From the IMG/VR virus record IMGVR_UViG_3300034236_000021: DNA of 41,550 nucleotides, one strand, 5' to 3'. Of the stretch, positions 4,722 to 41,550 are shown in pieces. This DNA comes from a virus. The notes beneath the pieces were generated by a model, which was not told the origin of the DNA, ran no database searches, and saw nothing but the letters and a program-made list of their open reading frames with translations. The stretch's first letter is position 1; the number at the start of each line of letters is the position of its first letter. The position numbers were made by a program, and so were the translations under genes.

Positions 4722-5033
4722 CTAACCTTGCTTGTATGTGGCTTGTAATCCCTCTAAGTACTCCTTCTCGCTAACTAAGTTCTCCTTGGTCATTTGGTTG
4801 GCTAATACTGTTCGGAGGTGTTCTTCAGGCTGGGTAGACACATCACTCGGTATGGATTCGAGCGAGTCGTAAAATGCTATGCGGGCTTCAAAGTGAGCGA
4901 TTAGATCAGTAATCATCGGCATGCCAGCCAAAGCTTTAGCCTTCTCTTCGGACTCCTCGTCCTTCCGGTCTTCGGGTAGCTCTGGCTTGTAGTAAGTACC
5001 GCCATCATTGGGGTAGAGGTTCTCGTCTTGCAT
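4722..5033 (-). CDS. Hypothetical acidic protein (103 aa) between portal and scaffold
   Basis: ORF with a 1-nt overlap to the portal stop. No recognised domain. Confidence 0.55.
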   Translation of the reverse strand: MQDENLYPNDGGTYYKPELPEDRKDEESEEKAKALAGMPMITDLIAHFEARIAFYDSLESIPSDVSTQPEEHLRTVLANQMTKENLVSEKEYLEGLQATYKQG

Positions 5034-6952
5034 TACGCTGGCCCTATCGCATTAATGATTTGCTCTTCAGGAAGATCAGCTGCCAGCATTTGCATGGCCT
5101 GCTGGATGCGTGCCTCGTCATATCCAAGAGCCTGAAGCTCTTGGATAAAGGCTGCGTCCTCTGGGTCTATCTGTGGTTGCTGAGGCATTTGCTCCATGGG
5201 GGGCTGGGACTGTTGGGCGGCCATCTGCTCCTGTTGTGCTGCCTGGGCCTGCATTTGTTGCTGTTGCTGGGCTGCTTGAGCTTCAGCCTGGGCTTGCTGC
5301 TCCGCTTCCATTTGGTCTAGCTCTTCATCGGACAGGGACATGTCTTCGGGGTCTTCAACGCCGGAAGCGGCGACTATCCTGTTCCATGCACCAACGATCT
5401 TTCGTTGCGGGATGATTCCCTGTAGCACGGTAGATTTCTCAAGCCGAGTTAGTAGACCGTCCAGAGCTTCTAGCTGTACGGAGTTGTCCTTCATGCGAGA
5501 AGAGCTAGCGTCTACTTCAAACTTCAGCTTCTGAGTTTCTGTATCAAAGTCGATGCGTACCTTGTTGTCATCGCTTACTGCACCAGGGTTAAGTTCGCGT
5601 ACCTTAGAGGCGGTGGCTTTGTCCAACTGGATTTCCTGTATGCCGGTGCGTTCAGCAAAGTAAAGATTTATAGCCGTCTCAGACCATCGCTCCTTAAAGG
5701 TGGCGTACTGTTTGCTAACAAAGTTGTCATCAACTGATACGTTCTGAGCGAGTTGCTTCACGCCTGAGTCAGTCTTAGAAAATCCAGGGTTGCCTATTTC
5801 TGAGCTGATAGAGGTATCAGGGCTGGAGGCTAAGTTGAGTAACTGAGATTTCATCAGCCCGTAGTTGGCGGCGAACTGAGCAAGTGCGTTGGTGTCACGC
5901 TTTAGTACTTCCCATGAGTTGCCCGGATTAGTACCTAGATCAATAAGGGCGTTTGGTATGAGCTTGGCCTGTGACTTGTTCCAGGTGCCACGCTTAATAG
6001 TCGGAGGCTGGAGACCTAAGGCTTTCTCGAACTGGTACATCTGTAGCTCAGCGTCCATGAGGTTCTGCATAGGTGCGAGTTGCTCAGCAAGTCCCCAGCC
6101 TAATGGGTTAGAGCCGTCTGTATCGGAGTACATGGATATAAGCGGGATGTCACCCCGAGGGTCTTTGTTCTTTTTTGTACGGACAATCTTTTTAGTCTTG
6201 GGATGAAAGGAGAAGAACTCAGAGCCTACACCGCGCTGGAAACAGTGCATGATCTCTACGCCACTAGCTTGGTAGTCCCTAGCTTTCTCGCTCGGGGCTT
6301 GGTCTTCGGAGTTCTTGGCAGTGATTTCTTTCTTGATAGATTCAAGAGCGCTCAAGTCCCACTCTGATACGTACTTCTCTTTACGCTCGGTGGCTTTTTT
6401 CTCCAGCCGTTTCTCACGCTGAATAAGACCTTCTATATCCGAGGTCTGCCACCATGAGCGCATAAAGACGTAGTTCGATGCTAAGTCGGAGTTCTTGCCT
6501 GGCTGATAGAGAACGTCCTTAATGAAGGGGATGGTCATGTCAGGGCCAAAGTAATCACCTCTGAACACAAGCGGTACATATGCCGGTTGTGACCCAAAGG
6601 TGAGTGCTTTCTTTACGACCAACCAATCCTTCTGCAGGAGCGCGAAATCTTCGTTACAGTTCGGTAGGATGATGTTGGTCAAACAAAAACCAGCGACTAA
6701 GGAAAGCCAATCATCGGCGTCGCTGGTTATAGTCCCGCTAGGGAGCTGTTGAATTATTCTCCGAGGAGTTTTGTTGATGATAGCAGAGGTGCTACCGTCA
6801 GTGACTTTAGGGTATGACTTATCCGTGTTGGGATGAGGCTTGTTACGGGCAATCCGGTCGTACTCATCCAGCGGCTCGAACAAAGGAGCCATGTACGCAG
6901 AGCTATCTCGAAGAGCATCGAAAACGTCTTTTTCGTCGAGTTGTGCGGCCAA
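5033..6952 (-). CDS. Portal protein (639 aa) with Gln-rich C-terminal tract and UBA-like end
   Basis: Size and position downstream of terL. The first possible start is TTG at 6952, with an in-frame TGA 10 codons upstream. The C-terminus is AEQQAQAEAQAAQQQQQMQAQAAQQEQ... then LQALGYDEARIQQAMQML. Confidence 0.8.
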   Translation of the reverse strand: MAAQLDEKDVFDALRDSSAYMAPLFEPLDEYDRIARNKPHPNTDKSYPKVTDGSTSAIINKTPRRIIQQLPSGTITSDADDWLSLVAGFCLTNIILPNCNEDFALLQKDWLVVKKALTFGSQPAYVPLVFRGDYFGPDMTIPFIKDVLYQPGKNSDLASNYVFMRSWWQTSDIEGLIQREKRLEKKATERKEKYVSEWDLSALESIKKEITAKNSEDQAPSEKARDYQASGVEIMHCFQRGVGSEFFSFHPKTKKIVRTKKNKDPRGDIPLISMYSDTDGSNPLGWGLAEQLAPMQNLMDAELQMYQFEKALGLQPPTIKRGTWNKSQAKLIPNALIDLGTNPGNSWEVLKRDTNALAQFAANYGLMKSQLLNLASSPDTSISSEIGNPGFSKTDSGVKQLAQNVSVDDNFVSKQYATFKERWSETAINLYFAERTGIQEIQLDKATASKVRELNPGAVSDDNKVRIDFDTETQKLKFEVDASSSRMKDNSVQLEALDGLLTRLEKSTVLQGIIPQRKIVGAWNRIVAASGVEDPEDMSLSDEELDQMEAEQQAQAEAQAAQQQQQMQAQAAQQEQMAAQQSQPPMEQMPQQPQIDPEDAAFIQELQALGYDEARIQQAMQMLAADLPEEQIINAIGPA

Positions 6953-7050
6953 GAGGGAGCCTAGCTGGACAGCACGGGGTGGTCAGTTCGACCAGTGGTC
7001 TGCGATTGCTATTCAGCTACACTGCTAATCTGAGTGGATAATACCATATT
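6953..7050 (-). promoter_or_regulatory. Promoter plus conserved ~80-nt leader, copy A (upstream of portal)
   Basis: Minus strand carries TGgTATTAT (extended -10, 7046-7038). The 5' box TCAGATTAGCAGTGTAGCTGAAT and the 3' box GTGCTgtCCAGCTAGGCtCCCTC-TTG are shared with 30970-31068. Confidence 0.65.
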
Positions 7051-7067
7051 TCTAGCAGAATTAGAAG

Positions 7068-7394: not shown

Positions 7395-7395
7395 A

Positions 7396-8733
7396 CTACC
7401 TCCATAAGCTTTGTATGTTACCTGTTGATGCGTCTTCGTCTTCCTCGACTGGAGCAACAAAATTCATAAGGGCATAGCGCAGCATGTCGTAGTCGTGATC
7501 ATCAGCCTTGGTGTCCACATCATCTACCCTAATCTTGTCGTACGGGAGCGAAGGTAGGGTACGGATTATGCTGGTGCACGTGCTAAAGATCTGGAGCTTT
7601 GGTAACCCATCTTTGGCGATACTCAGGTGGTCATGCACCACGGCCAGCCCAGCTTTGCGGTCGTTATTTGCTGGCATCCAAGTAACTTGTTCGTCAATGA
7701 ACATCTGAGCTATGGATTTACCTGTGTTATGGTCGCCTTGCCCGTTCCATATGGCAGGGTCAGCTAGCCCATAATGAATGTCTTCGCCCGCGTCAAATTG
7801 TTTAACTAGCTTGGACTTGCTTGGTATATCTACAAACTCTTCGGTTCGGTACTCACGGTACATGTAGATGCGCTCCGACATAGGGTCTTGAGCAAACCAC
7901 CCGATGCTGTTTTTGTTCCCATAGTCCATCGCCCTCCAACGCTGCCAGTGCTTGGGGATAGCGAACGGGTCGATAACATGCACATCTCTGCGGAACTCCT
8001 TGAACACCTGCCCTGCGAATACATCCCAGTCCCCGTCACGTAGCGCCCGTCTTAACTGGGGGTCGCTAATAGCGGCAAGCTTTCGGGAATAATCCTCTTT
8101 AAACTTCTGGTTAGGATGGTCGTCTACCTTAGCCGGGATAAACACACGGGTCACTGCCTGCCCTCCATCAAGGTTTACTATGTTTATATGTTCAGCAGGT
8201 ACGGGGTCAATAAAACGGGATTTAACCCAGCCATGGCCTATACCCCCAGGGTTTGTACCAGCGATAAACATTACCGGCCAGTCCGGGTTGCTCGTACGGT
8301 TACGAGTCAGCAGATACTCTATCCAAGCCTGCGGGAATTGTGTAAGCTCATCTACACCTATAACCGGCATTTCTGAACCCTGGTAGCGATAGATGTCATT
8401 ATCGTTGTCTAGGTAGTTGAGAATGAGGCTAGAGCCATTAGTCAATATGAACTTACGGTCTTGCCCGTGCCACGTCATGTGTCCGGCTCTAATGTATGCG
8501 CCAAACTGTTTGTTGATCTCAGGTATGATAGTGGCCTTCAGCTCTGGAATAGTGCGCCTAAATAGATTGATGGGTATGCCAGGATGTTCTAAGGCTATAG
8601 TGCCGCTCTCAGCAACTATAGCAGCAGTCTTGCCACCACCTGCTGCCCCGCCGTATAACTTCTCGTCTGCGACAGTAGTGTGAAAAACGGTCTGCCGATC
8701 AGAAGCCGTATAATCGGGCACCTTAATCTGCAT
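7396..8733 (-). CDS. terL: Terminase large subunit (445 aa)
   Basis: Walker A LYGGAAGGGKT. Walker B-like VIGVDELTQF. C-terminal nuclease-type acidic motifs (AMDYG, DDHDYDMLRYAL). Confidence 0.92.
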   Translation of the reverse strand: MQIKVPDYTASDRQTVFHTTVADEKLYGGAAGGGKTAAIVAESGTIALEHPGIPINLFRRTIPELKATIIPEINKQFGAYIRAGHMTWHGQDRKFILTNGSSLILNYLDNDNDIYRYQGSEMPVIGVDELTQFPQAWIEYLLTRNRTSNPDWPVMFIAGTNPGGIGHGWVKSRFIDPVPAEHINIVNLDGGQAVTRVFIPAKVDDHPNQKFKEDYSRKLAAISDPQLRRALRDGDWDVFAGQVFKEFRRDVHVIDPFAIPKHWQRWRAMDYGNKNSIGWFAQDPMSERIYMYREYRTEEFVDIPSKSKLVKQFDAGEDIHYGLADPAIWNGQGDHNTGKSIAQMFIDEQVTWMPANNDRKAGLAVVHDHLSIAKDGLPKLQIFSTCTSIIRTLPSLPYDKIRVDDVDTKADDHDYDMLRYALMNFVAPVEEDEDASTGNIQSLWR

Positions 8734-21375: not shown

Positions 21376-21516
21376 AGTCTGTTAGGATTAACAGATGATG
21401 AATTTTTGTAATTGTGCCTTCTACATGAAGGGCGCTATTACAAACGTTCAGTAACCGGGCGAAACATTTGTTGTGAACTTTAAGGTTCTAGAAGTTATTC
21501 TAGCAAATCTTATCGC

Positions 21517-22365
21517 TTATGTCAATACGCTTATGTGGTGCTGGTTAAACGCGTCCTGCAAATCTTGGTTTTCAACGTGCGTGTATATCTGGGTTGTGCT
21601 GATAAAGGCATGGCCCAGGATTAACTGGATATGTCTCATATTAGCACCATTATGCAATAAGTCAGTTGCCCCGCTATGCCGTAGCATGTGTGTGTACACT
21701 CGACGCTCTATGCCTGCTCGGCTTGCATTTCTTTTTACTACCCCATTTATTCCGCCCCTGGAGTAACGGACTTTCTTGGTGCTCAGGAATAGGGCCGGAG
21801 ATTCATCTTTCCTGCTGGCTAAGTACTCCGCTAACAAGATTCGTGTGTCTTTGTCTATAAAGACAGTCCGTGAGCGGGCATATTTGCCAAAACGTATGTA
21901 CACGAGATTATCACTTACGTCCGTTCGATTCAGGGAGGAAAGCTCCTTGGAACGTATACATGTATTAAATATGAAAGATAGCAACAATCGTTCCCGCAGA
22001 ATCGGGGCAGCTGCTATTAGGTCAACAATTTCACTATGCTTTAGATACTGAGGAAGAGCCTGGGGTAATCGAGGTAGGAATATCTCTGTCGTGTCGAATT
22101 TGGTATAGCCTTTTTTATTGGCATACTCCAGTATATTTTTGACCTTAGAAAGATAGAGTCTTACCGTTGCCGGGGCTTTATCTTTCGCCATATCGTTTCG
22201 CCATAAGGCAATATCAACCGGCGTCAGGCTTTTTATGTCGACGTTCCCGCGGCTACATACAAGTGCCTTTACGGCGTCACGGTAGCTTTGCTCAGAGCTA
22301 TCGGTTAAGCCGCGGACTTGTATGTAGTTGACTCTGAAATCTTCCAGGGCTTGTAATATTGTCAT
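21517..22365 (-). CDS. int: Tyrosine recombinase, XerC/D-like small integrase (282 aa)
   Basis: CIRSKEL (box I Arg), HMLRHSGATDLL and LGHAFISTTQIYTHV (H-R-H...Y). N-terminal SAM-like core-binding domain. No arm-binding domain is evident. Confidence 0.9.
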   Translation of the reverse strand: MTILQALEDFRVNYIQVRGLTDSSEQSYRDAVKALVCSRGNVDIKSLTPVDIALWRNDMAKDKAPATVRLYLSKVKNILEYANKKGYTKFDTTEIFLPRLPQALPQYLKHSEIVDLIAAAPILRERLLLSFIFNTCIRSKELSSLNRTDVSDNLVYIRFGKYARSRTVFIDKDTRILLAEYLASRKDESPALFLSTKKVRYSRGGINGVVKRNASRAGIERRVYTHMLRHSGATDLLHNGANMRHIQLILGHAFISTTQIYTHVENQDLQDAFNQHHISVLT

Positions 22366-22385
22366 GTTAAATACCGATCACAAAA

Positions 22386-22412
22386 ATGAAAAAGAACGGC
22401 CTTTAACGCCGT
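22386..22412 (-). terminator. Attenuator-like hairpin plus T-run inside the int leader
   Basis: Minus strand reads ACGGC-gttaaag-GCCGT followed by TCTTTTTCATTTTTG, about 20 nt before the int ATG, which lacks a clear SD. The stem is short. Confidence 0.4.
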
Positions 22413-22421
22413 CCCTCTATT

Positions 22422-22464
22422 ATTGCAATCGCCCACCCACCGGTAGACTGATTGCAATATAGCA
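22422..22464 (-). promoter_or_regulatory. Putative int promoter (extended -10 TGcTATATT) overlapping a 9-bp inverted repeat
   Basis: attgcaatc (22422-30) and gattgcaat (22450-58). The -10 hexamer is the reverse complement of 22456-61, with TG at 22463-64. Confidence 0.4.
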
Positions 22465-23233
22465 AAATTATGTTAATGTTACTAACTTCTACGTATAACG
22501 TGTGTATTTTTGGGCATGTTTAAAAGCCTGCTTTTTGTTTAACCCCTAGGGTACAGGCAACCTCACACTAGCACTGGCTCCGTAATGGGGTTTATTCCAG
22601 TCACTAGACCTTCATACTCCAACTGTAACCATGCGAAAGACCGAAATATAACAAATTGCAGCTTCTAGCAGATCATCAGACCCATAGAGAGATAAACAGT
22701 TTGTAACTATTCAGTGTTTGTTAAGCAGCGAGGTGCCTTTGATTTAATACCCTCAAAGTTCTAACTTTGCATACCCTCATTGTTAGATTGACGCATTACG
22801 TCACCAGCCCGTATAACATCCGCCATACGGGAAGCGGGGGAGAGTTTGTGAGTCAGGCTTTTTAAAGTCGGCCCTTCGGGTGCTATGTCATCGTTTCAGA
22901 GACAGCTCTCAAACCCTTTGCCACGACTACTGAAAGGCCACCAACGAATTGATGACCAAAAACCAGATAATTACATATTTGTGATACAAGTGCTCCATTA
23001 AGCAGCCTGTCCTACCGATGGCTTGACACACCGGCGGGACAGCGCTGGCAGCTGGGGTATGGGCCCTCATAGTTTATGCTCTGTTACGGAGATCCCAGGT
23101 TTGCTACCAGCTAACACAGCAAGTGTTCTTTACTCAGTCCGTACATTTAATTACGGCCCTCTCTTACTGCGCTGTTACGCTGCTCAACTTGCTATATATG
23201 GCGTACAGGCCAGCAACAAGTGCTGGACACTGA

Positions 23234-23425
23234 CTAGGCTTCTGGCGCGGAGTCTCTGCGCTTCATTTCTTCTTCAGTGAAATTCTGTACATAGTAATCA
23301 TCTGATTCTAGCTCTCTCCATTCCATGCCAGTTGCTTCAGTAATGAAATTTATGGCCTCCTGCTCGCTGTCGAACCAAGGTGATTCCACCCAGCCTTCAT
23401 CGGCGTTAAAAATTGCATAGCTCAT
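23234..23425 (-). CDS. Small very acidic protein (63 aa, MSYAIFNADEGWVESPWFDSEQEAINF...)
   Basis: Start trimmed to ATG 23425 with AAGGAG. Confidence 0.6.
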   Translation of the reverse strand: MSYAIFNADEGWVESPWFDSEQEAINFITEATGMEWRELESDDYYVQNFTEEEMKRRDSAPEA

Positions 23426-23479
23426 ACATGTCTCCTTATTACTGACATGCACGCCATATATAGCTTTCTATGTGAGTGT

Positions 23480-23494
23480 GATTAGTGCAGGTTG
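23480..23494. repeat. 15-bp inverted repeat, left arm (gattagtgcaggttg)
   Basis: Exact reverse complement of 23800-23814. The flanks extend the match imperfectly (cgg[g/a]...). Confidence 0.85.
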
Positions 23495-23518
23495 CCCGCA
23501 ACTATGTGCGGGCCAGCG

Positions 23519-23776
23519 TTACACCTTGTTACTAATGTACCAACACCAAAAGCTGTTGAGGCTTATGTCGTAGTACCCGTAGCCATCATAAGCAGGACTT
23601 TTCTGTGCTGCCAGGTTGCCAGACATGGACCTATCGTCTTCAAGGTCTTTCAACGCTTCCATTCGCATGCGGCTAAATTCTTCCTCTCTCTCAGCCCGTT
23701 TCTTGGTGAAGGCCAAAAACTCGAGCCAGTTTTCCTCGATGATATTTTGGCAGATTGGCATTAGTCCCTCGTGCAT
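23519..23776 (-). CDS. Hypothetical protein (85 aa)
   Basis: AAGGAGacaacATG. Charged helical centre and aromatic C-terminus. Confidence 0.6.
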   Translation of the reverse strand: MHEGLMPICQNIIEENWLEFLAFTKKRAEREEEFSRMRMEALKDLEDDRSMSGNLAAQKSPAYDGYGYYDISLNSFWCWYISNKV

Positions 23777-23799
23777 GTTGTCTCCTTATTTATTACGGA

Positions 23800-23814
23800 C
23801 AACCTGCACTAATC
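23800..23814. repeat. 15-bp inverted repeat, right arm (caacctgcactaatc)
   Basis: Exact reverse complement of 23480-23494. The two arms bracket the 85-aa gene together with its RBS. Confidence 0.85.
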
Positions 23815-23825
23815 GCTTGTATTAC

Positions 23826-24047
23826 GAGTGTGTTGTGGGTATGAAGCTAGTAGTAAGGTGAGGAATTCTTGCAGACACGGATTCGCGTATAGCAGAGCCG
23901 TTTCCATGCTTTACACCCTCGTCAGGAGCAGTACAATCCCACAATCAGTCACCTCACAATGAATCTGCGATAGGTTACAGATTCTATCAGCCTTACTTCT
24001 TGGATACTTACTACCAGCCTAATACCCACAACTAACACATACACTCA
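23826..24047. repeat. Long imperfect inverted repeat / hairpin (arms ~23826-23863 and ~23988-24047)
   Basis: Aligned by hand. Shared blocks are gagtgt, gttgtgggtat, gct and gtagtaag; about 30 of ~38 left-arm nt pair. The loop contains the hairpin gaatctg...cagattc (23961-23985). Confidence 0.7.
23910..23937 (+). promoter_or_regulatory. Candidate plus-strand promoter TTTACA-16-TACAAT inside the hairpin loop (antisense to the 85-aa gene leader)
   Basis: tttaca at 23910-15 and tacaat at 23932-37. Confidence 0.35.
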
Positions 24048-24069
24048 TATATGTAATTACCAGGTTTTT

Positions 24070-24098
24070 AAATTAGGGCTTGACAATAAATAGGTCAA
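24070..24098 (-). promoter_or_regulatory. Candidate minus-strand promoter TTGACC-17-TAATTT for the 85-aa/63-aa gene pair
   Basis: Reverse complement of 24093-98 and 24070-75. Would give a leader of about 285 nt containing the long hairpin. Confidence 0.4.
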
Positions 24099-24143
24099 AA
24101 GTCCTTTTAGCCATTTATGGTCATTTTTTGCAGTGTTACCAAC

Positions 24144-24168
24144 GCAAAAAGCCCCAAGCATTGGGGCT
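24144..24168 (-). terminator. Intrinsic terminator (minus strand)
   Basis: AGCCCCA-atgct-TGGGGCT followed by TTTTTGCG on the minus strand. Confidence 0.6.
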
Positions 24169-24221
24169 GTAGTCATGGTGATTAGATTTAATATACCAAA
24201 TTAACCGATTTTAGGCAAACG

Positions 24222-24266
24222 AAAAGGACGTGTCGCCCGGTTAAGAGTGTTCCACGTCCTTTTCTT
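24222..24266. terminator. Bidirectional hairpin terminator
   Basis: 11-bp stem aaaaggacgtg / cacgtcctttt with a 20-nt loop. T-runs follow on both strands. Confidence 0.5.
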
Positions 24267-24372
24267 GCTTTAACTGTATCATGCGGAATATATGTTGTCA
24301 CTAGTAGATAGCTAACAAAAAAGCTCATAAGCCCCCTCTTTGGCAAACATAAGTAGCATGAAACGCTAGACA

Positions 24373-24388
24373 TGCTTATACTTGCTTC
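24373..24388 (+). promoter_or_regulatory. Extended -10 promoter (TGcTTATACT) giving a leaderless mRNA for 24389..24922
   Basis: TATACT at 24377-82 is followed by 6 nt and then the ATG. There is no SD upstream of the ATG. Confidence 0.45.
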
Positions 24389-24922
24389 ATGGTCAGATCA
24401 AATCTCCCGGCAGAACAAAACACACCACAAGATGGTTCGGGGGTAGAGTCGCTTAAAATCATCATCGAAGAACAGCGCCGTGACTATGATTATCTATTGC
24501 ACATCTATAATCGAACGCGTGCGACCGAAAGCATATTACTAACTGCTACTTTTGGTGTAGTTGCGTATCTATACTACTCCGCTCCTGTTGGGTCTAAGAC
24601 GACAATAGCTACGAGACTGTTCTTTCCTACGGAGGACTATGGCAAGGTTATATACGTCATAGCGGCTGGATTCTTCGCTTACGGCATTCTCAAGTTGATG
24701 CTAACCGTCTTTGGCAATAACCCGTGGGAGACTGCATATGATGGCAATGACCCCCAGAATGGCACGGAACAGTCTACGCTAGAGTACATTAAAAAGAGAT
24801 ATAATGAGTGTCACGCCTTTAACTCTCAAACGTACATTAAGCGTAAGGATAATCTTGAATTTTTATTTTTCTCAATAATCATCAGTGCTATAATACTTAT
24901 AGTAATAAAAACCTTAAGATAA
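24389..24922 (+). CDS. Membrane protein (177 aa, ~3 TM), plus-strand moron
   Basis: TM segments ILLTATFGVVAYLYY, VIYVIAAGFFAYGILKLMLTVF and FLFFSIIISAIILIVI. Own promoter and own terminator. Confidence 0.7.
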   Translation: MVRSNLPAEQNTPQDGSGVESLKIIIEEQRRDYDYLLHIYNRTRATESILLTATFGVVAYLYYSAPVGSKTTIATRLFFPTEDYGKVIYVIAAGFFAYGILKLMLTVFGNNPWETAYDGNDPQNGTEQSTLEYIKKRYNECHAFNSQTYIKRKDNLEFLFFSIIISAIILIVIKTLR

Positions 24923-24972
24923 GCGAGGTTTTCATGGCAGTATACGTATACAACTCATAACAAAATTATCAC

Positions 24973-24994
24973 AAGCCCTTCACGGGGCTTTTTT
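24973..24994 (+). terminator. Intrinsic terminator (plus strand)
   Basis: AAGCCC-ttcacg-GGGCTT-TTTT. Confidence 0.7.
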
Positions 24995-25100
24995 AATTAG
25001 CGCCTAGTAACAAAAAAGCCCGCTTGTCCCTGAGTGACTTACGAGCTTTATGCCCCGCTTCCAATGCGCTGTTAAAGCGGATATCTTTGCGCTTTCCCAT

Positions 25101-25138
25101 TTTAACAAATAACCGCCTCCTCGCAATGAGTGGCGGTT
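25101..25138 (-). terminator. Hairpin terminator at the end of the late/lysis operon
   Basis: Minus strand reads AACCGCC-13 nt-GGCGGTT followed by ATTTGTT. Confidence 0.45.
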
Positions 25139-25238
25139 ATTCGGCCTAGTCAGCATACAAGCTTTCGCTCATGCCTGTATTATATCAAATCTATATCCCG
25201 TAACCACGGCCAAGCGTTTACTTCTTATTAACTAACGC

Positions 25239-28288: not shown

Positions 28289-30280
28289 CTAGGTCAAATC
28301 CTTAGTTCCGACTAATACGTAACGGATAATCACATCGGATAATTGGTAGTCGACGCCTGCAGTTGTGGTATTCAATTCCCAAGTAAGCCACTGCAATTCT
28401 TCATCAACTTCAATCACGACTGGCTTATTGGCATCCCCGAACTGCGTAGGAACTGCGGTGGAACTTGACCAACCGAAAGAAGACCAGGCGGCTTCTGACC
28501 AACCGGCGATAGATGCAGAAGACGTATAGGTATCACCTCCTACGGTTGTGAGGGAGGCGTCTTCTGTTTTGCCTGCTACGTTAAGGGTTATCTGGCCCTG
28601 TGGCCTTTGGATAAAGAACGTAACGTCAATAACCTTTGCCCAGTCCAGGCCGTCCTCAGAGAACTTCAGTAATCCTGAGGTAGCAGACGTGATGAATGCT
28701 GAGCCGTTATCATTTGTCGCTTGGGCGTAGCTAAATTCGTAAACCTGGTTATTCGAGAGGACGCAGAAGTGTGTAGTGCCGCTATTGTCGTTGTAGAGCC
28801 ACATCCAGTCAGCTGCTACGGTCCAAGGCTTCATCCATGCACCATCACGGTCAAGGTCAAGCACCCATATTTCGTTATTGCTGGTCGTTCCGAAAGGTAC
28901 CGCCCAGTAAAGCTTTCCTTCAAAACCTAGCCCGACACACATATCCATGGCGGAGTTATCCAAGCTTTTAATACTGTTCTGGATAGTGTTAGAAACTCTA
29001 TTAGTTGAGAGTAGATTCTGTAGCTGGGGCTTCGTGCCAGTGGTCTTGAACCCGTCACGCGATGGGTACCATAAGGAGTCGTTGTATAGAATTACACCGT
29101 CTGGTGAGTCGGTGCCGTCCTGCCCGTTATCTTCAGTCACACCGAAGAAATCGATAATGGTATCACCGACCGTCAGGGTTTCTTTAGACATAAGGTAGCG
29201 TTTGCCTCGGCCGTTGGTGCCACGGCACATGACGGTAATTTGAGGGTTGCCTCGGCCATCACGGAAAGGCCGAACACATACTGGAAACTCTTTTGTACCT
29301 TTGCCTATCTCAACATTGCCACCACCGTTAAAGGGAGAGAAGTCTAATACAGAATTAGCCGTACCACCAAACCACACATAGCGCGGGTGGTCTTTGTCTC
29401 CGGTTAGGAAAACCTGACCGTTAATTACCTCACCCCTGGTAACCTTGGGGCCTGCGGTGGAGTCAGTGGTAGGTGCCTGTCGAGTAGGGTCTTTGGCTAT
29501 TTGGCCATCATCCTTAAAAGACAATCCATTGATGCCAGCTGCGATTAGGAAAAGGCTGCCGGACACGTCACCTTGGTATAGGTTATAGCTTGCAGCGCTA
29601 GCAACCGCTGACCACGATACCGTTACGTGATTAGTGCTAGAATCCCATGCCTCTCTGAGTGACCCTACCTGCACAGAGGCAGAGGCGGCTGCGGCTGTCT
29701 CACCCACCGTACTGTTGGCTGTAACAGTGTAGTAGTAGGTGTAGGTTGTTCCAGCTAGCCCTGACTTTACTGGTGTTGGAGCCGAGGGGGTGCTTAGGGC
29801 AACGAAGGGAACAACTGTCGGGGTTGTAGTTGAGGTGGAGATATTAAAATAACTAAGGTTATCCTCGCCATTCATTACGAGCACCTTGTCATCTATCTGG
29901 CAGAAATGGGCACGCGCGGCAGTGTCGTAGGTCTTGCCGGTAGTAGCCGTCCAAGCCCCACCGTCCTTGCTGATATAGGGCCTGGCTGTACCGCTAACAT
30001 TCTGCATACAGATAAGCCAGTTGGTGCTGCCAGTTGCCGTAGCCTCTACATACTCGAAAACCCCGCCTAGAATCGTACCCGTAGGTTGTATGCCGTAGGA
30101 GATGAGGGAGGGCCGGGGGCGAAGGGTGCCGTCCTGGTCAAGTACTACGTTGCCAGAGCTGCGTAGACCGTCAGTAGGCGTGCGTCCATCATCATTAGCT
30201 GTAACAGTTCCCTTTAGCCAGTCCCGATAGCTAAGCCTCCGTATCTTGGGTTTGGGTCGTCTAACAGCCTGGGAAATCAT
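28289..30280 (-). CDS. Large tail protein (663 aa), tail tubular B/nozzle-like with an FN3-like insert
   Basis: Size and position. Segment PSAPTPV...YTYYYTVTANS...VTVSWSAVASAASYNLYQG looks FN3-like. ATGA overlap with the upstream gene. Confidence 0.5.
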   Translation of the reverse strand: MISQAVRRPKPKIRRLSYRDWLKGTVTANDDGRTPTDGLRSSGNVVLDQDGTLRPRPSLISYGIQPTGTILGGVFEYVEATATGSTNWLICMQNVSGTARPYISKDGGAWTATTGKTYDTAARAHFCQIDDKVLVMNGEDNLSYFNISTSTTTPTVVPFVALSTPSAPTPVKSGLAGTTYTYYYTVTANSTVGETAAAASASVQVGSLREAWDSSTNHVTVSWSAVASAASYNLYQGDVSGSLFLIAAGINGLSFKDDGQIAKDPTRQAPTTDSTAGPKVTRGEVINGQVFLTGDKDHPRYVWFGGTANSVLDFSPFNGGGNVEIGKGTKEFPVCVRPFRDGRGNPQITVMCRGTNGRGKRYLMSKETLTVGDTIIDFFGVTEDNGQDGTDSPDGVILYNDSLWYPSRDGFKTTGTKPQLQNLLSTNRVSNTIQNSIKSLDNSAMDMCVGLGFEGKLYWAVPFGTTSNNEIWVLDLDRDGAWMKPWTVAADWMWLYNDNSGTTHFCVLSNNQVYEFSYAQATNDNGSAFITSATSGLLKFSEDGLDWAKVIDVTFFIQRPQGQITLNVAGKTEDASLTTVGGDTYTSSASIAGWSEAAWSSFGWSSSTAVPTQFGDANKPVVIEVDEELQWLTWELNTTTAGVDYQLSDVIIRYVLVGTKDLT

Positions 30281-30969
30281 ACATAGCCCGCCATGCTGTC
30301 ATCGATGGTGTGCCCAAGAGGATTCCAGGGGCTGAGTATGGTTATAGACTGCGAATCATTGTCTTCGCGCATCCGCTCCATGCGGTCGTTGGCCTCAGCA
30401 ATAAGATCAGCTCGCAAGTCTTGGCGAGTTACATCATTACGGACGTAATCAGCGGCCACTACATATACGAGCCAGTCTGGGTCATCTACGGTAAGGTCAT
30501 CGGTCGCGCCTGTCAGAACTTCTGGGAACAGGTACACAGGGAGATAGATTGTGCCGCCGAACTGTGGGCTAGACGAATTGAACGCATTATTAAACCGGAT
30601 GGTCCGGCCTATCCTCGCCGCATAGTTTCCTGTATCCATGTTCCGTAGCCGGTTGGCGTCAACAATTGTGTAATCTGACCAAACAGTGGTGCTACCTGAG
30701 TGCGTAATGCGGATAACATCAGACTCTTGTTGGCTGATTTTCCGTATTTCATCATCTAGGTCAAATGTCTGGGCAGCAGTAACAGTGCCTGCGCTATATG
30801 CAGGGTCGTATAGTGAGTTCCAATCGATTCCAGGGGTACGCGCCCAGACCCTTTGGTACCGGTTTCCGGCAGCTAAAAGGTTATTCCATTTCGTAGAGCC
30901 AACAGCAAAAGTAGGTATTTTACCAGTGGCAGCTTGGAATGCGTCAGAGATGAACTCTTCGACGGTCAA
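30277..30969 (-). CDS. Tail adaptor / tail tubular A-like protein (230 aa)
   Basis: Position upstream of the 663-aa protein. The only possible start is TTG 30969 (in-frame TGA 14 codons upstream, no other start codon). Function inferred from synteny only. Confidence 0.5.
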   Translation of the reverse strand: MTVEEFISDAFQAATGKIPTFAVGSTKWNNLLAAGNRYQRVWARTPGIDWNSLYDPAYSAGTVTAAQTFDLDDEIRKISQQESDVIRITHSGSTTVWSDYTIVDANRLRNMDTGNYAARIGRTIRFNNAFNSSSPQFGGTIYLPVYLFPEVLTGATDDLTVDDPDWLVYVVAADYVRNDVTRQDLRADLIAEANDRMERMREDNDSQSITILSPWNPLGHTIDDSMAGYV

Positions 30970-31068
30970 GAGGGTGCCTAGCTGATAGCACGAAGGTTGA
31001 GCAGTGGCTCAAGCGTTCTGCACTCGTGTATTCAGCTACGCTGCTAATCTGACTGGATTATACCATTT
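30970..31068 (-). promoter_or_regulatory. Promoter plus conserved ~80-nt leader, copy B
   Basis: Minus strand carries TGgTATAAT (31065-31057) immediately after the 1345-aa gene stop. The 5' box TCAGATTAGCAGCGTAGCTGAAT and 3' box GTGCTatCAGCTAGGCaCCCTC-TTG are shared with copy A. Confidence 0.7.
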
Positions 31069-31069
31069 G

Positions 31070-34000
31070 TCAGGAGACTTTGCGACTGGTTTGTACGAGC
31101 TTAGCCCTACGTAGTTTCGGTGTCCTTACACTAGCTGTAAACTTGGGTATGGACGGACGGGAAGCCTTAATAGTAGACTGACGCGCGCGCCCTATGGTTG
31201 GGGTCTTTAGGGCTAGGCCAATAGCTTTGGCGCTCCTGGCCTTAGCCTGACCCTCACCTTTAGCTTTAGGTTTTATTGATACGTTCCCGTACTTATCTCG
31301 AAGCTTGCTCTTTTCCTGTAGGCCTGCCTTAGTTAAGGCGTCGTCATAGTCGAGCAAACGCCCTACGAGGTCAGTATCATTACCCTTACTTTCTAGGTAC
31401 TTAGATATTTCTGATTTATTCATCTCATAGAGATCACGCACGTTCTTGTCGTACTTTGAGCCAACTTCCAGCTTTTGTAATTTTCTTTTTCTTGTGATGT
31501 CTTTGACCTCTGTAATCTTGCCCTCAGATTTGTCTTGGTCATACTTGTCTTTTGCGGCTATATACTCTGCCTCGGGTGAGGAGTAGAACTCAGTCTCTTT
31601 TTGTTCCTCGGTCTGTGTATAAGACTTTGGATTGAACTTGCCCTGAGCAAGCTGTTTTTGCCCAAACGAAAGTTTCTTTTCTTCGCCTTCATATCCTGGT
31701 GCATATTGACCAACCTGGTTCTCAGCAGCGTACTTAGCCTTCTCTACCGCCAGAATATCTTTTGAGAGGTTAGCCAGTGCTTTCTTTTGTTCTTCATCGC
31801 CTAGAGCTTTATATTCAGGTGTAGCTACTAGACTCTTCCATCCTGCTCCAACTTGCTGCCCCACCTGATCTTGTAGCGCCTTTAACTGGGGCTTTTCTAG
31901 CTTCGTGTCTTTTCCGAAGGTGTCTGACTTGATCTGTGAAGGGATAGCACCCATGTCCACATCCTTAAGCGCACGTAGCTCCTGTGAAACTGCGTCACCT
32001 TCCCGGACAAGACTCGGCTTAAAGGGGTTAACGTACTGGTTTAAGAAGTTATCTTTAGCGGGTAATGGTTGGCCAAACAGATCAGTCTTTGGTGCGGTCT
32101 GACCACGCAGCCCAGGCACCCCAGATTTGATACCTTCAATAATGCCCTCAGGCTTTCTTTGAATCTCATCAGCAGCGCGTGCAGCCGAACGTACAAAGTT
32201 GGGGGTAAGAGAAGACGTACTATTCTCTACAAACTTCTTAGCGGTACCGTCGGGGTCATTAATTGCGTCTAGTACACCACTAATACCTTTCAAGAAGGAT
32301 TGCTCTTGCATGGCCTGCGCTGCGGTCGCAATCGCGCTGAAAGTCTTGTCTGTCGTGCCCTTACCTTCTTGGCCACTATCGTGTATGTCGCCGCCAATAG
32401 CCAGGAGCATACCAAACGGCTGTAGGTAGTTCAGGGAATACCAGCGGTTGCCTACTCGAACAGAGTACGGTTGTTTGCCTTCCGCTTCCCATAGCTTGCG
32501 TTCTTTTTCGTCACGAGGATAACCGAATGTCATGTCTCCCGCTTTAGCTAGAGCAAGCCCTGCGCCAATAGCTACAACTCCAAACGTACCGTTGCCTATC
32601 GCCTGTGACATGGCCCTTTGATCGAACGGCTCACCAGCTTTCACAGCTTTAATCTGCGTAACCATCTCCTTGGCAATCCCGACTGGGGTACGTTCTACAA
32701 GACGTGTGGCTATCGCGGACGGCACTTGAGTAAACGGTATTACAAAGTCTACTACTGGCTTGGCTGGGCCCGCGCTTCTCTTAAGCCCACTCGCCATATT
32801 GCCTAATATTGTTTTGTTCTTAAACGTAGCGTAATCGGATTCCTTTGTCGCGCGCTCCAGCGCCTGGGTTGGCGGGTTAGCCATAAACTTTTGTACAAAT
32901 GAACTCCTGGCGTTACCCTTAAGCCCCCGGTTAGTAGCCTCAGCCTTAGCGATGCTACTAAGCGCTTCTTTCTGGGCCGAGGTGCTAAACGGTGCATCCG
33001 CCGTCCCCATGAGGCGGTAGACGCCGTTAACGTATCCCCCGAGTGCTTTGCCAAATGGGCTGTTACCATAGCTCAGATCAGCCTTCTGTTCGTATTTCTG
33101 CCCGTTGTTACGAGGGTCATAGCCTGTCTTTATATAGTCAGGGAGTGTCTTGGCGCCTTCCTTAAAGCCGGAACCGGCAGCACCCGGTAGTGCTAGCGTC
33201 TGAGTTCGTTTCCCAGTAGCAAGGCTCATTAACATATCTGCTCCAGTGGCCACAGGGTTAACAAACCCCTTTCGCACCAGTGCCTCACCCGTGTTACCAA
33301 GCAAGTTACCAGCGGTAGTTGTTGGGGCGGTTAGTAGCCCAGCTCGCCAGAAGTTTATAATGCGGTCGCCTGCCCCGGACGGGATGTTATCGTTTACCAG
33401 TTTCTGTACTTCGAACACCGCCCGCTGTTTATCAGTGGCGGTCTTTGTCTTGGCTATGAGAGCATTAAGCTGTGTCTGTAGTTCAGGCGTTACTTTTACT
33501 CCTGCCTGATTCAGTTGCTTAGTAGCCCAGTAGCGAAGCCCCTCGGGAGTACGGCGAGATAAGATAGCCGCAGCTTGGACAGTTTGACCGGCGGCCGTCA
33601 GGTGTTCGCTTAGGCGCTCATACAGCTCGGTGGCTTTCTGCAAACTAGCTGGGTCGGCTTTGGCGTCAAGGATTGCAGCGAGTGATTGGGTATCGGCCAC
33701 ATCTTGACTGCTAATCTTGCCGCTTGGCGCTTCTAATCGAGTGCGGACGTCTATCTCGAACGTGTCCTCGCCCTGAGCCTTTAGTCGTCCTAGGGAGTCT
33801 GTATATCGAGCTCTTTCGGTTTGCACATCGTATTGTGGGGCACCTGCCTTAACGTCTCGGCGCACCTGCTCACTTACAAATTCACTTTCAGGTACAGTTT
33901 TCCCAGCATAACGGGAAGTCTTCTGTTTGCTTACAGGGTCAAACGTTGCCACAGCTTGATTGGGTGGGAGGCTCATGTCTCCAGCTGGAGCAGTAAGCGT

Positions 34001-37430: not shown

Positions 37431-37494
37431 TCGCGGTACATTGTATTGCCTAAGGCGTACGGCGAGCTGTGATAGTCTGATTATATCACTATTT

Positions 37495-37656: not shown

Positions 37657-37750
37657 GCAAGCACGCGCTTGTTAGCACCCCCACCAAGTGTGCTTGCACA
37701 TTATCCTTCGTAGCGAGAAAGATTTAACCGGCTGATATGGCCGGTTTTTT
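37657..37750 (+). ncRNA. Candidate sRNA (~94 nt): 5' hairpin with C-rich loop, single-stranded ACAUUAUCCUUCGUAGCGA, intrinsic terminator
   Basis: Stem gcaagcac (37657-64) / gtgcttgc (37690-97) with loop uuagcacccccac. Terminator AACCGGC-tgatatg-GCCGGTT-TTTT (37726-50). Contains no ATG. Confidence 0.6.
37698..37716. repeat. 19-nt perfect direct repeat, copy 1 (acattatccttcgtagcga)
   Basis: Identical to 37847-37865. The flanking bases differ on both sides. Confidence 0.95.
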
Positions 37751-37779
37751 CGTGGCCCGTGAAGGTATGAAATCGTAAG

Positions 37780-37921
37780 CATAAGAAAAGACCGGCAAGA
37801 TGCCGGTCTACTTCGTGACTTCGAGCTACCCCAATGTAGATCAATAACATTATCCTTCGTAGCGATACGTCGGTAGGGCGGTATACTCTCAAAACCCTCT
37901 TGGCAAGGCCTTGCCGCGATT
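37780..37921 (-). ncRNA. Candidate sRNA (~140 nt) convergent with the plus-strand sRNA; carries UCGCUACGAAGGAUAAUGU
   Basis: Predicted +1 ~37921. 5' palindromic hairpin GGCAAGGCCTTGCC. Terminator GACCGGCA-tct-TGCCGGTC-TTTTCTT (37808-37780). The terminator lies inside the 74-aa track ORF, which argues against that ORF. Confidence 0.55.
37847..37865. repeat. 19-nt perfect direct repeat, copy 2
   Basis: Identical to 37698-37716. Confidence 0.95.
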
Positions 37922-37927: not shown

Positions 37928-37957
37928 AGTATAATCCCATACCTTTCAGTCTGTCAA
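37928..37957 (-). promoter_or_regulatory. Promoter TTGACA-18-TATACT for the minus-strand sRNA
   Basis: Reverse complement of 37952-57 (TTGACA) and 37928-33 (TATACT), just downstream of the fibre gene stop. Confidence 0.6.
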
Positions 37958-39760: not shown

Positions 39761-41550
39761 TATCTTGTAGCTATCCAGTGAAGCAAGTTAGTTAATGTTG
39801 CACCATTATCAAAGGTGGTGAGCGCATTCGCCTCAGTCCATGCAGCTGCTGGGTCGAGTACCGCCTTAGCGGAGTTCATAACCCCTTGCCAGGCATCAGT
39901 CATTTCTATATGGAGAGTGCCTGTTGCACCCGTACCTCCTCCACCGACGACAGTGATGGTATCGCCGTCAACATAACCACTCCCCGTCCACTCATACGCT
40001 GAGCCTATCTTTGGAGTTATAGAAGTGACAGCACCTCCCGATACAGCAATAGTGACGAGAAGGCCTGTACCGCTACCCCCAGTTGTTGCTAGGCTGCTTC
40101 CTGCGGTATAGCCTGAGCCACCCGTGAGCTTGGTTATCCGGTAAGGCGTACTACGGCTATCGATACGTGACATAACGGCCGGGTACTCATCCGCAACCCA
40201 GTCAGCCTCCAAGAAAAGTTCTGATATCGGTACGCAAGGGAGCATCTGGATTCCATGTATATACTCTTCCTGGGTTCCGAAGAAGGTGTTGTAGTCCATC
40301 TTAAAGTCGAACAAGATACCCACTGAGCCTTGCTGTTTGAAGTTCTCGGGCCAGATCGGTGAGTCAAGCTTAACGTGGTAGTAGCGCCGGACCGAGTGCA
40401 GTTCGGTGGCAGTCAGTAGTTGTCCGGTTGCAGCCATGTAGTCGCTGCCGCTCGCCAGTCCCCATAGTGTCAGTGCATAGTAGGCATTGATTGATTCACT
40501 GGAAGATTCTTGGTTCTTTGAGCTACTAGCTGCGCTTAAGCCATGGGCCCACGAATGGCCGTGGTACCAGTCTTTGTGACGGAATAGTGGGAAGCTGGTT
40601 TCACTTGGGTATGGGTTAGCTATATCTTTAGCTAGAACATTTACTTTTGTTTGGTAGCTAGCTAGGAACGCTGCGTCAGTCTTAGCAAGTATGGCGGCTG
40701 CGTAGAGCATGTATCCGTAGTGGAAGTGATGATCATTGTATATGCCATTGCCGAAGTCACCACCCGTAGATGTTGAGCCGTTTGTGGAGATGATGCCCCC
40801 GAAAGTCGTGTCATACAGTAGCTTATTTGTGTTAGTAGCGTCTAGCCAGGCTACAAGGCTTGGCTTGAACTTTGTACGAGCACTGGCCGCTAGAGTAGTC
40901 TCACCAAGTTCATCAGCTATTTGGGCTAGGCGGGCCCACTTCGCTAAGTACTTCCCACCGTAGTAGGGGTCAGCCTGCGCGGTAGTGGTACTGAATGTTG
41001 CACCAATGTCAGCGGTTAGCGCTGTCGTAATGGCTGCTATGCGGGTAGGGTCAATAGCATTCGGCGGCTTAAACCCAAATGTTGGGAGCACTTCACGCAT
41101 CGTCCATGAGGTGCCGCTTATCCCAGTCGTATCACCTTTAAGCACGTTATAGGTAATACCGGCTAGTGTTGGGTCCTGTATACCATCCATGTGATGGGGC
41201 AGTACGTGTGTCAGAAGCGTACCGCTTCCACTTGTCGTGTAAGTGAATACGATTGTACCCACGTTGTTATTTACGGTAAGAGTGAGATCAGCCCCAGTAA
41301 CGTATATGCCATGGGCAGCATCAAGTACGGCCTCATCTTCAGGCACGGATATAATGGCAGCCTGCAAAATTCCGGTGAAGGTGCTAGTAGCCACCAGCGC
41401 AGCAGTTGCGTGAGTGGATATGGTGATAACTGAGCTGGAGTAGATTACCCATGTCTGGCCATTACTCAGCACAATCTTAAACTTGTCACCTGTTGCACTT
41501 GAGCCTGGTGTTAGCCCATTAATAGTGACGATGCTCCCGGTGTGGGTGAT
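39760..41550 (-). CDS. GH81 endo-beta-1,3-glucanase, C-terminal 596 codons of the junction-spanning gene
   Basis: GH81 signature blocks YNDHHFHYGYMLYAAAILAK, FRHKDWYHGHSWAHGL, NQESSSESINAYYALTLWG and YIHGIQMLP. The frame stays open upstream of the track start at 41472, through 41550 and into 128-550. Confidence 0.88.
   Translation of the reverse strand: MTHTGSIVTINGLTPGSSATGDKFKIVLSNGQTWVIYSSSVITISTHATAALVATSTFTGILQAAIISVPEDEAVLDAAHGIYVTGADLTLTVNNNVGTIVFTYTTSGSGTLLTHVLPHHMDGIQDPTLAGITYNVLKGDTTGISGTSWTMREVLPTFGFKPPNAIDPTRIAAITTALTADIGATFSTTTAQADPYYGGKYLAKWARLAQIADELGETTLAASARTKFKPSLVAWLDATNTNKLLYDTTFGGIISTNGSTSTGGDFGNGIYNDHHFHYGYMLYAAAILAKTDAAFLASYQTKVNVLAKDIANPYPSETSFPLFRHKDWYHGHSWAHGLSAASSSKNQESSSESINAYYALTLWGLASGSDYMAATGQLLTATELHSVRRYYHVKLDSPIWPENFKQQGSVGILFDFKMDYNTFFGTQEEYIHGIQMLPCVPISELFLEADWVADEYPAVMSRIDSRSTPYRITKLTGGSGYTAGSSLATTGGSGTGLLVTIAVSGGAVTSITPKIGSAYEWTGSGYVDGDTITVVGGGGTGATGTLHIEMTDAWQGVMNSAKAVLDPAAAWTEANALTTFDNGATLTNLLHWIATR
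41424..41550. repeat. Terminal exact overlap, copy 2 (identical to 1-127)
   Basis: Same 127-nt string as 1-127. An ORF reads through it in frame, so it is the same locus written twice. Confidence 0.97.

Follow-up and report, generated by a model that had tools for sequence, protein, structure and literature searches.

Paired promoter-leader cassettes with a conserved RNA fold precede the portal and tail adaptor genes of a putative Saccharibacteria podophage

Introduction

The IMG/VR virus record IMGVR_UViG_3300034236_000021, a stretch of 41,550 nucleotides (nt) that was analysed as a whole and is referred to here as the window, carries on its minus strand a portal gene and a tail adaptor gene of podovirus type. 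Each of these genes is preceded by a cassette of about 105 nt (cassette A, 7046→6950, in front of the portal gene; cassette B, 31065→30967, in front of the adaptor gene), in which a predicted extended -10 promoter, a structured leader of 79-81 nt and a TTG start codon follow one another. Gene regulation has hardly been explored in phages that infect Saccharibacteria or other members of the candidate phyla radiation, and the same is true of the hosts themselves. An earlier reading of the window, made from the sequence only, had noticed the two cassettes and had proposed that they may constitute a shared control element that could set low and matched expression of the two genes. The analysis presented here describes the cassettes, their counterparts in related phages and prophages, the fold and covariation of the leader RNA, and the explanations that may account for its conservation.

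Results

Two paralogous cassettes in the window

A repeat finder returned the cassettes as a match of 43 nt (7010-7052 versus 31029-31071, 88% identity), and both repeat blocks named in the sequence-only reading were found at their positions on the minus strand. The 24-nt 5' box (TCAGATTAGCAGYGTAGCTGAATA) and the 22-nt 3' box (CAGCTAGGCWCCCTCTTGRCCG, which ends in TTG) each have exactly two matches in the window at up to three mismatches, against 0.00 and 0.01 expected, respectively, which shows that the similarity between the cassettes is real and not due to chance. The genome-wide search for the 5' box thus returned the two cassettes and no other site, and the observation of twin cassettes is confirmed. 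The middle parts of the cassettes are unlike each other and form a hairpin in either copy, as noticed before (UGGUC/GACCA in A and UUGAGC/GCUCAA in B). A diverged third copy was rejected: none was detected by nhmmer with the family profile across the window. The occurrences of the 10-mer AGATTAGCAG were at chance level.

Other origins of the repeat were considered and discarded. A mobile element, such as a miniature inverted-repeat transposable element, is not compatible with the presence of two copies only, both of which are located at orthologous positions in relatives. A leader peptide was rejected because the ATG within ATGGTAT opens a 12-codon open reading frame (ORF) in cassette A and encodes only Met-Val-stop in cassette B; no other conserved frame was found in the two cassettes. 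Read-through, bypass or fusion with the upstream ORF was dismissed on account of the differing frames, the lack of any relation between the upstream genes, and the promoter that lies in between. The 5' box of the window was absent from IMG/VR in an exact-pattern scan. The sole match to a two-gap pattern in the JGI metagenomes (locus L103, 1313-1377) was judged to be a chance match; it lies on a high-GC bacterial contig, alongside a toxin-antitoxin-like ORF pair, and has neither a -10 element nor phage genes in its surroundings.

Relatives of the two loci and the presumed host

Protein searches yielded 710 portal and 117 adaptor homologues. Protein identities with relatives are 40-85%; the loci of relatives are designated here by L and a number. 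Close relatives are L094 (85% identity) and L096 (69%) on the portal side and L095 (78%) and L097 (67%) on the adaptor side, while L099 and L100 together represent both loci of another complete phage. Scans driven by alignments added 39 adaptor and 80 portal loci from IMG/VR as well as 20 loci from GTDB genomes; single-protein back-translation searches with the adaptor and with the 1345-aa protein encoded upstream of it found nothing, so that a search based on an alignment was required. Among GenBank phages, no DNA relative of the window was found.

The GTDB portal relatives (L143-L162; e.g., L148, NZ_JAJQJS010000002.1, and L155, CAURZF010000001.1) include contigs of 164 to 714 kb and one cultured TM7 (Nanosynbacter) strain, and on the basis of these contig sizes and the cultured strain genome they are considered to be prophages. 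An L148-type leader is present in the cultured strain Nanosynbacter TM7-076. Since 19 of the 20 GTDB loci reside in genomes of Candidatus Saccharibacteria, Nanosynbacter or Nanosyncoccus, the clade is taken to consist of Saccharibacteria phages and prophages, and the phage of the window probably infects a member of this group as well.

A conserved predicted promoter type in front of both genes

A TGnTATAAT motif is located 88-90 nt upstream of both TTG starts, in agreement with the extended -10 elements that had been proposed on the minus strand (TGGTATTAT in A and TGGTATAAT in B); the latter begins 4 nt past the stop codon of the 1345-aa internal-virion-protein gene. Approximately ten similar TGnTAnnnT sites occur elsewhere on the coding strand of the window, also at 37488 and 10829, and several of these are situated within the wide intergenic gaps (411-630 nt) of the 25.2-21.5 kb region. 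TGnTATAAT thus looks like the normal promoter type of this phage, and the minus-strand region 21500-25200, which contains one divergent plus-strand ORF (24389..24922), is probably an early or regulatory region.

The -10 element was also encountered in front of the portal or adaptor genes of L001, L005, L007-L029, L094-L102, L104-L122 and many of L143-L241, and in its strict TG-extended form it is present in 34 of 72 non-redundant upstream regions. It is kept although the leaders that follow it differ completely in sequence and in length (12 to 90 nt, with many leaders of 45-90 nt before both genes). The shared promoter-leader cassette proposed earlier is therefore borne out in the relatives as a design, namely promoter plus leader before both genes, whatever the leader sequence. 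Among window-type leaders, the six bases of the discriminator between -10 and +1 (7037..7032 in A) vary freely, and conservation sets in at exactly the predicted transcription starts, A7031 and A31050, which had been placed at about these positions before. These putative promoters would be of the host-type sigma-70/sigma-A extended -10 class, with start sites as predicted here.

Fold and covariation of the leader RNA

Between orthologues, the leader is 81-87% identical, compared with 67-81% for the adjacent coding sequence, 42-58% for its third codon positions and 50-64% for the upstream DNA. Single-sequence folding gave the same nested arrangement of three helices, P1, P2 and P3, in each leader, i.e., one interrupted hairpin. 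The closing helix P1 is formed by GYGUAGCUG and CAGCUAGGC, and the C/U difference in its 5' strand maintains pairing with G in the RNA. Helix P2 (AUAGCA/UGCUAU) is stacked on P1 and is register-shifted in copy B; the asymmetric internal loop between P2 and P3 (J2/3) carries a conserved GCAGA(A/C)C. The apical hairpin P3 is variable: UGGUC/GACCA is found in portal leaders, UUGAGC/GCUCAA in adaptor leaders, and GUCGU/ACGAC, GUUGC/GCAAC and others further away. Base-pair probabilities are about 1.0 for P1 in all five window-type leaders and 0.9-1.0 for P3.

In a hand-curated alignment of 10 leaders, which was fitted to the structure, 91.8% of the cells are paired, versus 28-42% when the partners are slid along each other; 11 of 29 pairs have changed on both sides, and none of 500 shuffles reached the observed score. 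Covariation was found in all five core pairs of P3 and in three of the nine P1 pairs. The pairing of the 5' box with the 3' box that the sequence-only reading had suggested is thus supported by pairing probability and by covariation in relatives, which cannot be said of the alternative leader folds suggested in the same context. A local 5' hairpin (UUAGC/GCUGA, -4.2 kcal/mol, replaced by CAGC/GCUG in L095) would compete with P1 and is physically possible, but it shows no covariation and has no counterpart in distant relatives. An AGA/UCU helix between the 5' tail and the start codon was rejected, as it is too short and is lost in L095.

Two segments that remain unpaired in this fold, the 5' tail AGAUUAGCA and the GCAGA(A/C)C of J2/3, are nearly invariant. 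None of the Rfam 15 covariance models matched the window or the loci of 13 relatives at gathering score, and at E-values of up to 10 the matches were at chance level (e.g., c-di-GMP-I with 13.9 bits, against a threshold of 35 bits); no tRNA or tmRNA was found in the window. Since its design is retained in relatives, the leader is regarded as a real regulatory RNA, which is uncatalogued as judged against Rfam 15.

The translation initiation region

The claim that TTG is the only possible start codon holds for the adaptor gene, where it is the first start codon past an in-frame TGA 14 codons upstream and where no other ATG, GTG or TTG occurs in the first ~50 codons. It was overstated for the portal gene, which has an alternative in-frame ATG at codon 21 that was chosen by the gene caller in one relative. 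Nevertheless, TTG stays the best portal start, because residues 2-20 are conserved as protein and homology begins at residue 5 or earlier; moreover, in relatives the codon aligned with it is a TTG or GTG that serves as the start, and GTG or TTG starts are used by 31 of 43 portal genes in the clade. Most other genes of the window start with ATG.

A Shine-Dalgarno (SD) type motif (GGAG, GAGG, AGGA or AAGG) within 25 nt of the start was found for about 60% of the other called genes, and not for almost every one as had been asserted for AGGAG, and it is lacking in both cassette genes. These are SD-poor, as noted before, but not devoid of an SD-like element: a conserved UAGG lies 7-8 nt upstream of the TTG in window-type leaders and in three closer relatives, and at 9 nt in L122. 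This UAGG, the sole SD-like element present, is the segment that P1 pairs with the 5'-proximal part of the leader. The reported conservation through codons 2 and 3 (RCC-G) did not extend to relatives, which have TCG-G, GGC-T or ACT-G, and the likeness between the two cassettes at these codons is best read as chance.

In relatives, the corresponding clamps are stronger, with z-scores of -3 to -8 and with the start codon covered. Among 30 non-redundant leaders of at least 40 nt, 23 have a z-score of -2 or lower, and in 26 the stretch from -12 to +3 has at least five of its 15 nt paired to the first 30 nt of the transcript. Clamps are seen, for instance, in L100 (AAGGCCACCUA/UAGGUGGCUUU), L101 (AAAGGCCAC/GUGGCCUUU), L113 (AGCUACCU/AGGUAGCU, followed by AUG) and L147 (AAAUCACUGA/UCAGUGAUUU), the last of which shows a change in codon 2 that is matched by a change in the 5' strand.

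Resemblance of paired leaders within genomes and U-tracts in relatives

The portal and adaptor leaders of one genome resemble each other more than they resemble the leaders of other lineages. Within-genome scores were 65, 41, 33 and 39, with background scores of 10-22, and an equally good result was reached in only 4 of 720 permutations; two of the six genome pairs are without similarity, namely 3300037466_1497 (14) and SRR23479355 (12; an uncertain pair from the same sample). Both leaders of ERZ27228614 contain CACCUAAAAAAGYAMGGAAC, and both leaders of 3300002067_7 contain AACCAAGUAAARCACGGCA. P3 is gene-specific across the window, L094/L095 and L096, which argues against a recent wholesale gene conversion. 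In addition, the apical loop octamer of P3, ACGUAAGA, is identical in L097 (2940-2990) and L099 (1940-1990) and appears as AAGUAAGA in L107 (1440-1490), with surrounding stems that differ by compensatory changes; such a sequence-conserved loop points to a specific contact.

A regular expression for U-tracts matched the last 60 nt before the portal or adaptor match in 19 of 36 leaders of relatives. The tract is placed terminator-like after a hairpin in several adaptor and some portal leaders, and past the start codon in others. An A-tract, a GC-rich hairpin and U5-6 between promoter and start were found in the portal leaders L143/L197, L167, L183, L207, L218 and L221 and in the adaptor leaders L097, L099, L105, L108, L122 and L135; in L097, L099, L105, L108, L122, L143 and L221 this hairpin is P2, flanked by the A-tract, and U5-6 comes after it, just ahead of the start codon. 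Attenuation may operate in this part of the family.

Genes downstream of the cassettes

Structural models and structure searches matched the folds of both gene products, in line with the identities proposed before. The AlphaFold 2 model of the portal (mean predicted local distance difference test score, pLDDT, 75) retrieved with Foldseek the podovirus portals of Pan3, SU10, A4, VP1, N4 and T7 at E-values of 3e-13 to 1e-8, and a homologue scored 28.2 bits against PF23899 (SU10_portal), just under the 30-bit cut-off. The adaptor model (pLDDT 88) retrieved, with Foldseek probability 1.0, the adaptors of cyanophage A4, SU10, VP1 and GP4 and the tail tubular protein A of T7 (gp11) and KP32, at E-values of 3e-9 to 1e-4 and template-modelling scores of 0.48-0.62. 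Neither protein has an above-threshold Pfam domain, and a PDB sequence search with the portal alignment profile was uninformative. As judged from the modelled folds, the downstream genes encode a podovirus portal and a T7-gp11-type tail adaptor.

The portal gene is located downstream of TerL (7396..8733, minus strand, 445 aa), and, judging from the gene order and a weak capsid-family match in a relative, scaffold and capsid genes probably come after it. A 130-aa ORF with a TTG start (7068-7460, minus strand) has 65 nt in common with the 3' end of the TerL gene; in relatives, one or two small genes of 66-115 aa are found between TerL and the portal gene, and in view of these smaller sizes the true start of the 130-aa ORF is probably further downstream. 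The adaptor gene is followed by a 663-aa gene (28289..30280, minus strand) and then by a tail gene. The ATG of the 663-aa gene overlaps the adaptor stop codon (ATGA, -4 overlap), which suggests that its translation is coupled to that of the adaptor. The 663-aa protein matched no PHROG or Pfam family and had a non-significant PDB sequence match (E = 0.37); by its position it may be the nozzle (T7 gp12-like).

Table 1. Genes and cassette elements in the window (all on the minus strand)
Feature	Coordinates	Strand	Remarks
Portal gene	5033..6952	minus	639 aa, TTG start
Tail adaptor gene	30277..30969	minus	230 aa, TTG start
Cassette A extended -10, TGGTATTAT	7046..7038	minus	also found at the orthologous position of L094, L096, L100-L102 and many relatives from IMG/VR and GTDB
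Cassette A 5' box, AGATTAGCAGTGTAGCTGAATA	7031..7010	minus	predicted +1 at 7031, 7 nt past the -10
Cassette A unpaired tail	7031..7023	minus	fold
Cassette A P1, 5' strand	7022..7014	minus	fold
Cassette A P2	7012..7007 with 6974..6969	minus	fold and covariation
Cassette A J2/3, GCAGACCAC	within 7012..6969	minus	conserved
Cassette A P3 hairpin	6994..6990 with 6984..6980, loop 6989..6985	minus	
Cassette A P1, 3' strand, CAGCTAGGC	6967..6959	minus	holds SD-like UAGG
Cassette A pyrimidine spacer, TCCCTC	6958..6953	minus	
Cassette A TTG start	6952..6950	minus	
Cassette B extended -10, TGGTATAAT	31065..31057	minus	conserved in L095, L097, L099, L104-L122
Cassette B 5' box, AGATTAGCAGCGTAGCTGAATA	31050..31029	minus	predicted +1 at 31050
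Cassette B unpaired tail	31050..31042	minus	fold
Cassette B P1, 5' strand	31041..31033	minus	fold
Cassette B P2	31031..31024 with 30993..30985	minus	register-shifted, bulged C
Cassette B J2/3, GTGCAGAACGC	within 31031..30985	minus	
Cassette B P3 hairpin	31012..31007 with 31002..30997, loop 31006..31003	minus	
Cassette B P1, 3' strand, CAGCTAGGC	30984..30976	minus	
Cassette B spacer, ACCCTC	30975..30970	minus	
Cassette B TTG start	30969..30967	minus	

Discussion

The explanation that we favour, and that we consider on balance somewhat probable, is that each cassette combines a promoter with a cis-acting structured 5' untranslated region that throttles the first cistron of a late operon. The transcript would start at the predicted position and fold into one long interrupted hairpin, in which P1 would tie the 5'-proximal leader to the UAGG. 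A weak TTG behind a pyrimidine spacer, a minimal SD and the leader would together result in low translation of the first cistron, and the leader might also act as a stabilizer of the 5' end. The portal and the adaptor are each present at 12 copies per virion. These would be the products that are throttled, while genes further along the same transcripts would encode products that are probably required in greater numbers. The unpaired boxes that both leaders have in common suggest that one factor or one physical property probably acts on both. Low and matched expression of portal and adaptor, as advanced in the sequence-only reading, is a reasonable inference. What the analysis shows directly is the elements in the sequence and how they are conserved, the helices that covary and what the two genes encode, whereas promoter activity, the +1 sites, the effect on translation and the action of any trans factor are inferred.

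Several points weigh against throttling by the leader. The window leaders are no more stable than shuffled sequence (z-scores of -0.5 to -1.8), and the TTG lies 6 nt beyond P1, outside the helix. The probability of being paired is 0.60 for the TTG of the portal and 0.13 for that of the adaptor, and for the region from -15 to +6 it is 0.63 and 0.47, respectively, which is within the range of the other 43 genes; accordingly, no start-codon occlusion above that of ordinary genes was found among the 45 genes compared in the window. Simple occlusion also leaves the conserved 5' tail and J2/3 unexplained. The covariation counts are biased towards the structure to which the curated alignment was fitted, and unsupervised analysis with MAFFT and RNAalifold gave no consensus for 11 leaders and recovered only P1 and part of P2 for five sequences. 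This failure is attributed to helices being out of register, as the MAFFT columns displace the P3 helices of the two paralogue types relative to each other. Moreover, the U-tracts of relatives hint at transcriptional control in the family, and recognition of the promoter in the presumed host is an assumption.

The near-invariance of the unpaired boxes, with covarying stems and drifting loops around them, is what would be expected if the boxes were an operator for a trans-acting regulator and the structure served to display them, so that synthesis of portal and adaptor is switched or balanced. The regulator could be a small RNA, an RNA-binding protein of the phage, or one of the virion proteins controlling the mRNA that encodes it. 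The portal leader and the adaptor leader vary in concert in three lineages or more, namely the window clade, ERZ27228614 and 3300002067_7, and the shared P3 loop of L097 and L099, with its counterpart in L107, fits the same explanation. However, no candidate regulator was identified, the within-genome resemblance could also stem from gene conversion between the copies, and the independent genome pairs are few, with two of the six at background level; an operator function is regarded as unlikely. The same holds for its extension to a post-transcriptional regulon that couples the synthesis of the two 12-mer rings of the head-tail joint, for which the chances appear equally modest: a phage factor, unassembled portal or adaptor, or a small ligand would bind the unpaired boxes on the P1-P2-P3 scaffold, and the boxes of both leaders would co-evolve with this factor in each phage lineage.

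Throttling of translation is also to be weighed against functions at the level of transcription and RNA processing. The position of the leader, directly after the promoter, in two copies per genome and at the head of long co-directional operons, would suit an attenuator or antitermination site at which transcripts stop unless RNA polymerase is modified or the leader itself confers terminator resistance, and the terminator-like arrangements and U-tract matches in relatives point the same way, though some of these tracts lie past the start codon. In both window copies, however, the U-tract is lacking, P2 is followed by AUCAGCUAGG or GUCCAGCUAGG, and no terminator-like site was found at either cassette. 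Since the structure is nonetheless kept there, termination cannot be the common function; furthermore, P1 consistently engages the ribosome-binding region, which is not needed for antitermination, and this explanation is judged quite improbable. Little credence is likewise given to a processing or stability element, i.e., an RNase III site or a 5' protective stem with secondary effects on translation. Stacked on each other, P1 and P2 do give an irregular helix (14-17 bp in the window, at least 20 bp in relatives, where it starts about 5 nt from the predicted 5' end), and T7-type podoviruses use paralogous intergenic RNase III hairpins. On the other hand, the helix is short for RNase III, the 9-nt unpaired 5' tail of the window leaders suits a 5' stabilizer poorly, and the constant pairing partner of the SD and start region would be left unexplained. 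The least probable explanation, and in our opinion a very improbable one, is confined to the DNA: a promoter present in duplicate whose +1 is overlapped by the operator of a DNA-binding regulator, or else the neutral trace of a duplication event, without any function of the RNA structure. The box does overlap the transcription start region, where repressors often bind, and occurs in two copies only, but it has no dyad symmetry, relatives keep the architecture with unrelated sequence, and the leader is more conserved than synonymous sites. The compensatory changes in P1, P2 and P3 and the C/U change that preserves G-U pairing also argue for selection on the RNA.

Among known systems, the leader would work most like the leaders that sequester a ribosome-binding site, such as ROSE elements, fourU thermometers and the platforms of translational riboswitches. 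In these as in the cassettes, an upstream strand pairs with an SD-like element in cis, directly upstream of the regulated gene; in relatives this strand also pairs with the start codon and is often CACCU-like, resembling an anti-SD. The window differs in that its start codon lies outside the helix, its SD is merely UAGG, two paralogous copies are present, the unpaired boxes are conserved in sequence, and no sensing function is assigned. The hairpins of T4 late genes (e, soc, I-TevI), the gp32 pseudoknot and the RegA sites likewise place the initiation region of late or structural genes within an RNA structure, and in the case of RegA several mRNAs share one type of operator. In T4 e and soc, however, the late promoter is located inside the hairpin, so that late transcripts escape occlusion, whereas the clamp described here is situated wholly downstream of the promoter.

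The lambdoid PR'-qut-tR' region (6S RNA) and the putL and putR sites of HK022 are alike in position and copy number only. The put-type RNAs consist of two stem-loops that render RNA polymerase terminator-resistant in cis; they are two paralogous structured RNAs per genome in a promoter-proximal leader, as here, and, similar to the lambdoid late leader, the leaders of many relatives contain a terminator-like hairpin and a U-tract. In contrast, no U-tract is present in the window copies, the ribosome-binding region of the next gene forms the end of the leader, and no Q-like gene or put-like sequence was recognized. The RNase III sites of T7 (R0.3, R1.1) are also paralogous, irregular intergenic hairpins that shape expression of flanking genes in a podovirus. 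Sites of this type are irregular double-stranded RNAs of ~20 bp that are cleaved by RNase III, whereas here two copies only are found, each with its own promoter and with a shorter helix. Large surveys of phage structured RNAs exist (PMC10690425), and the Rfam families GP20-a (RF02991) and GP20-b (RF03003) as well as the csRNA catalogue (PMC10690425) contain covarying structures directly upstream of phage genes; however, no Rfam model matches the window or the 13 relatives. The host clade, the paired use before portal and adaptor, and the within-genome co-variation are new.

With exact coordinates, the cassettes define a promoter type that is conserved and a family of leader RNAs with covarying helices. 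Both precede the same pair of genes throughout a broad clade of phages, to which prophages of cultured TM7 strains also belong. The throttling explanation amounts to a testable model of how a podophage could keep the 12-copy portal and adaptor low while the transcripts carry genes of probably higher copy number. The leader can serve as a ready marker for late operons in these genomes and is a candidate for inclusion in Rfam. Should a factor bind the shared boxes, virion assembly would offer a new case of coordinated control at the level of translation, and if the regulon explanation is true, phages of the ultra-small Saccharibacteria would have revealed assembly-feedback control of a new class.

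Additional features of the window

The window has the appearance of a complete phage genome, with ends (1-127 and 41424-41550) that are identical over 127 bp and represent either a short terminal repeat or an overlap from circular assembly. Other samples contain the same phage in contigs of 41,267 and 41,444 bp. A 232-aa protein (17783-18481, minus strand) has a middle part of about 20 or more tandem pentapeptide repeats of the A[DN]L[SR][GE] type, encoded by a 15-nt tandem repeat (18069-18443) and followed by a cysteine-containing C-terminal domain; this pentapeptide-repeat protein is possibly a DNA mimic. Finally, terminator-like hairpins are arranged back to back on both strands at 37726-37809, inside a 74-aa ORF near its 3' end, and a near-consensus promoter (TTGACA-18-TATACT) is present at 37957..37928, an arrangement that looks like an operon boundary.

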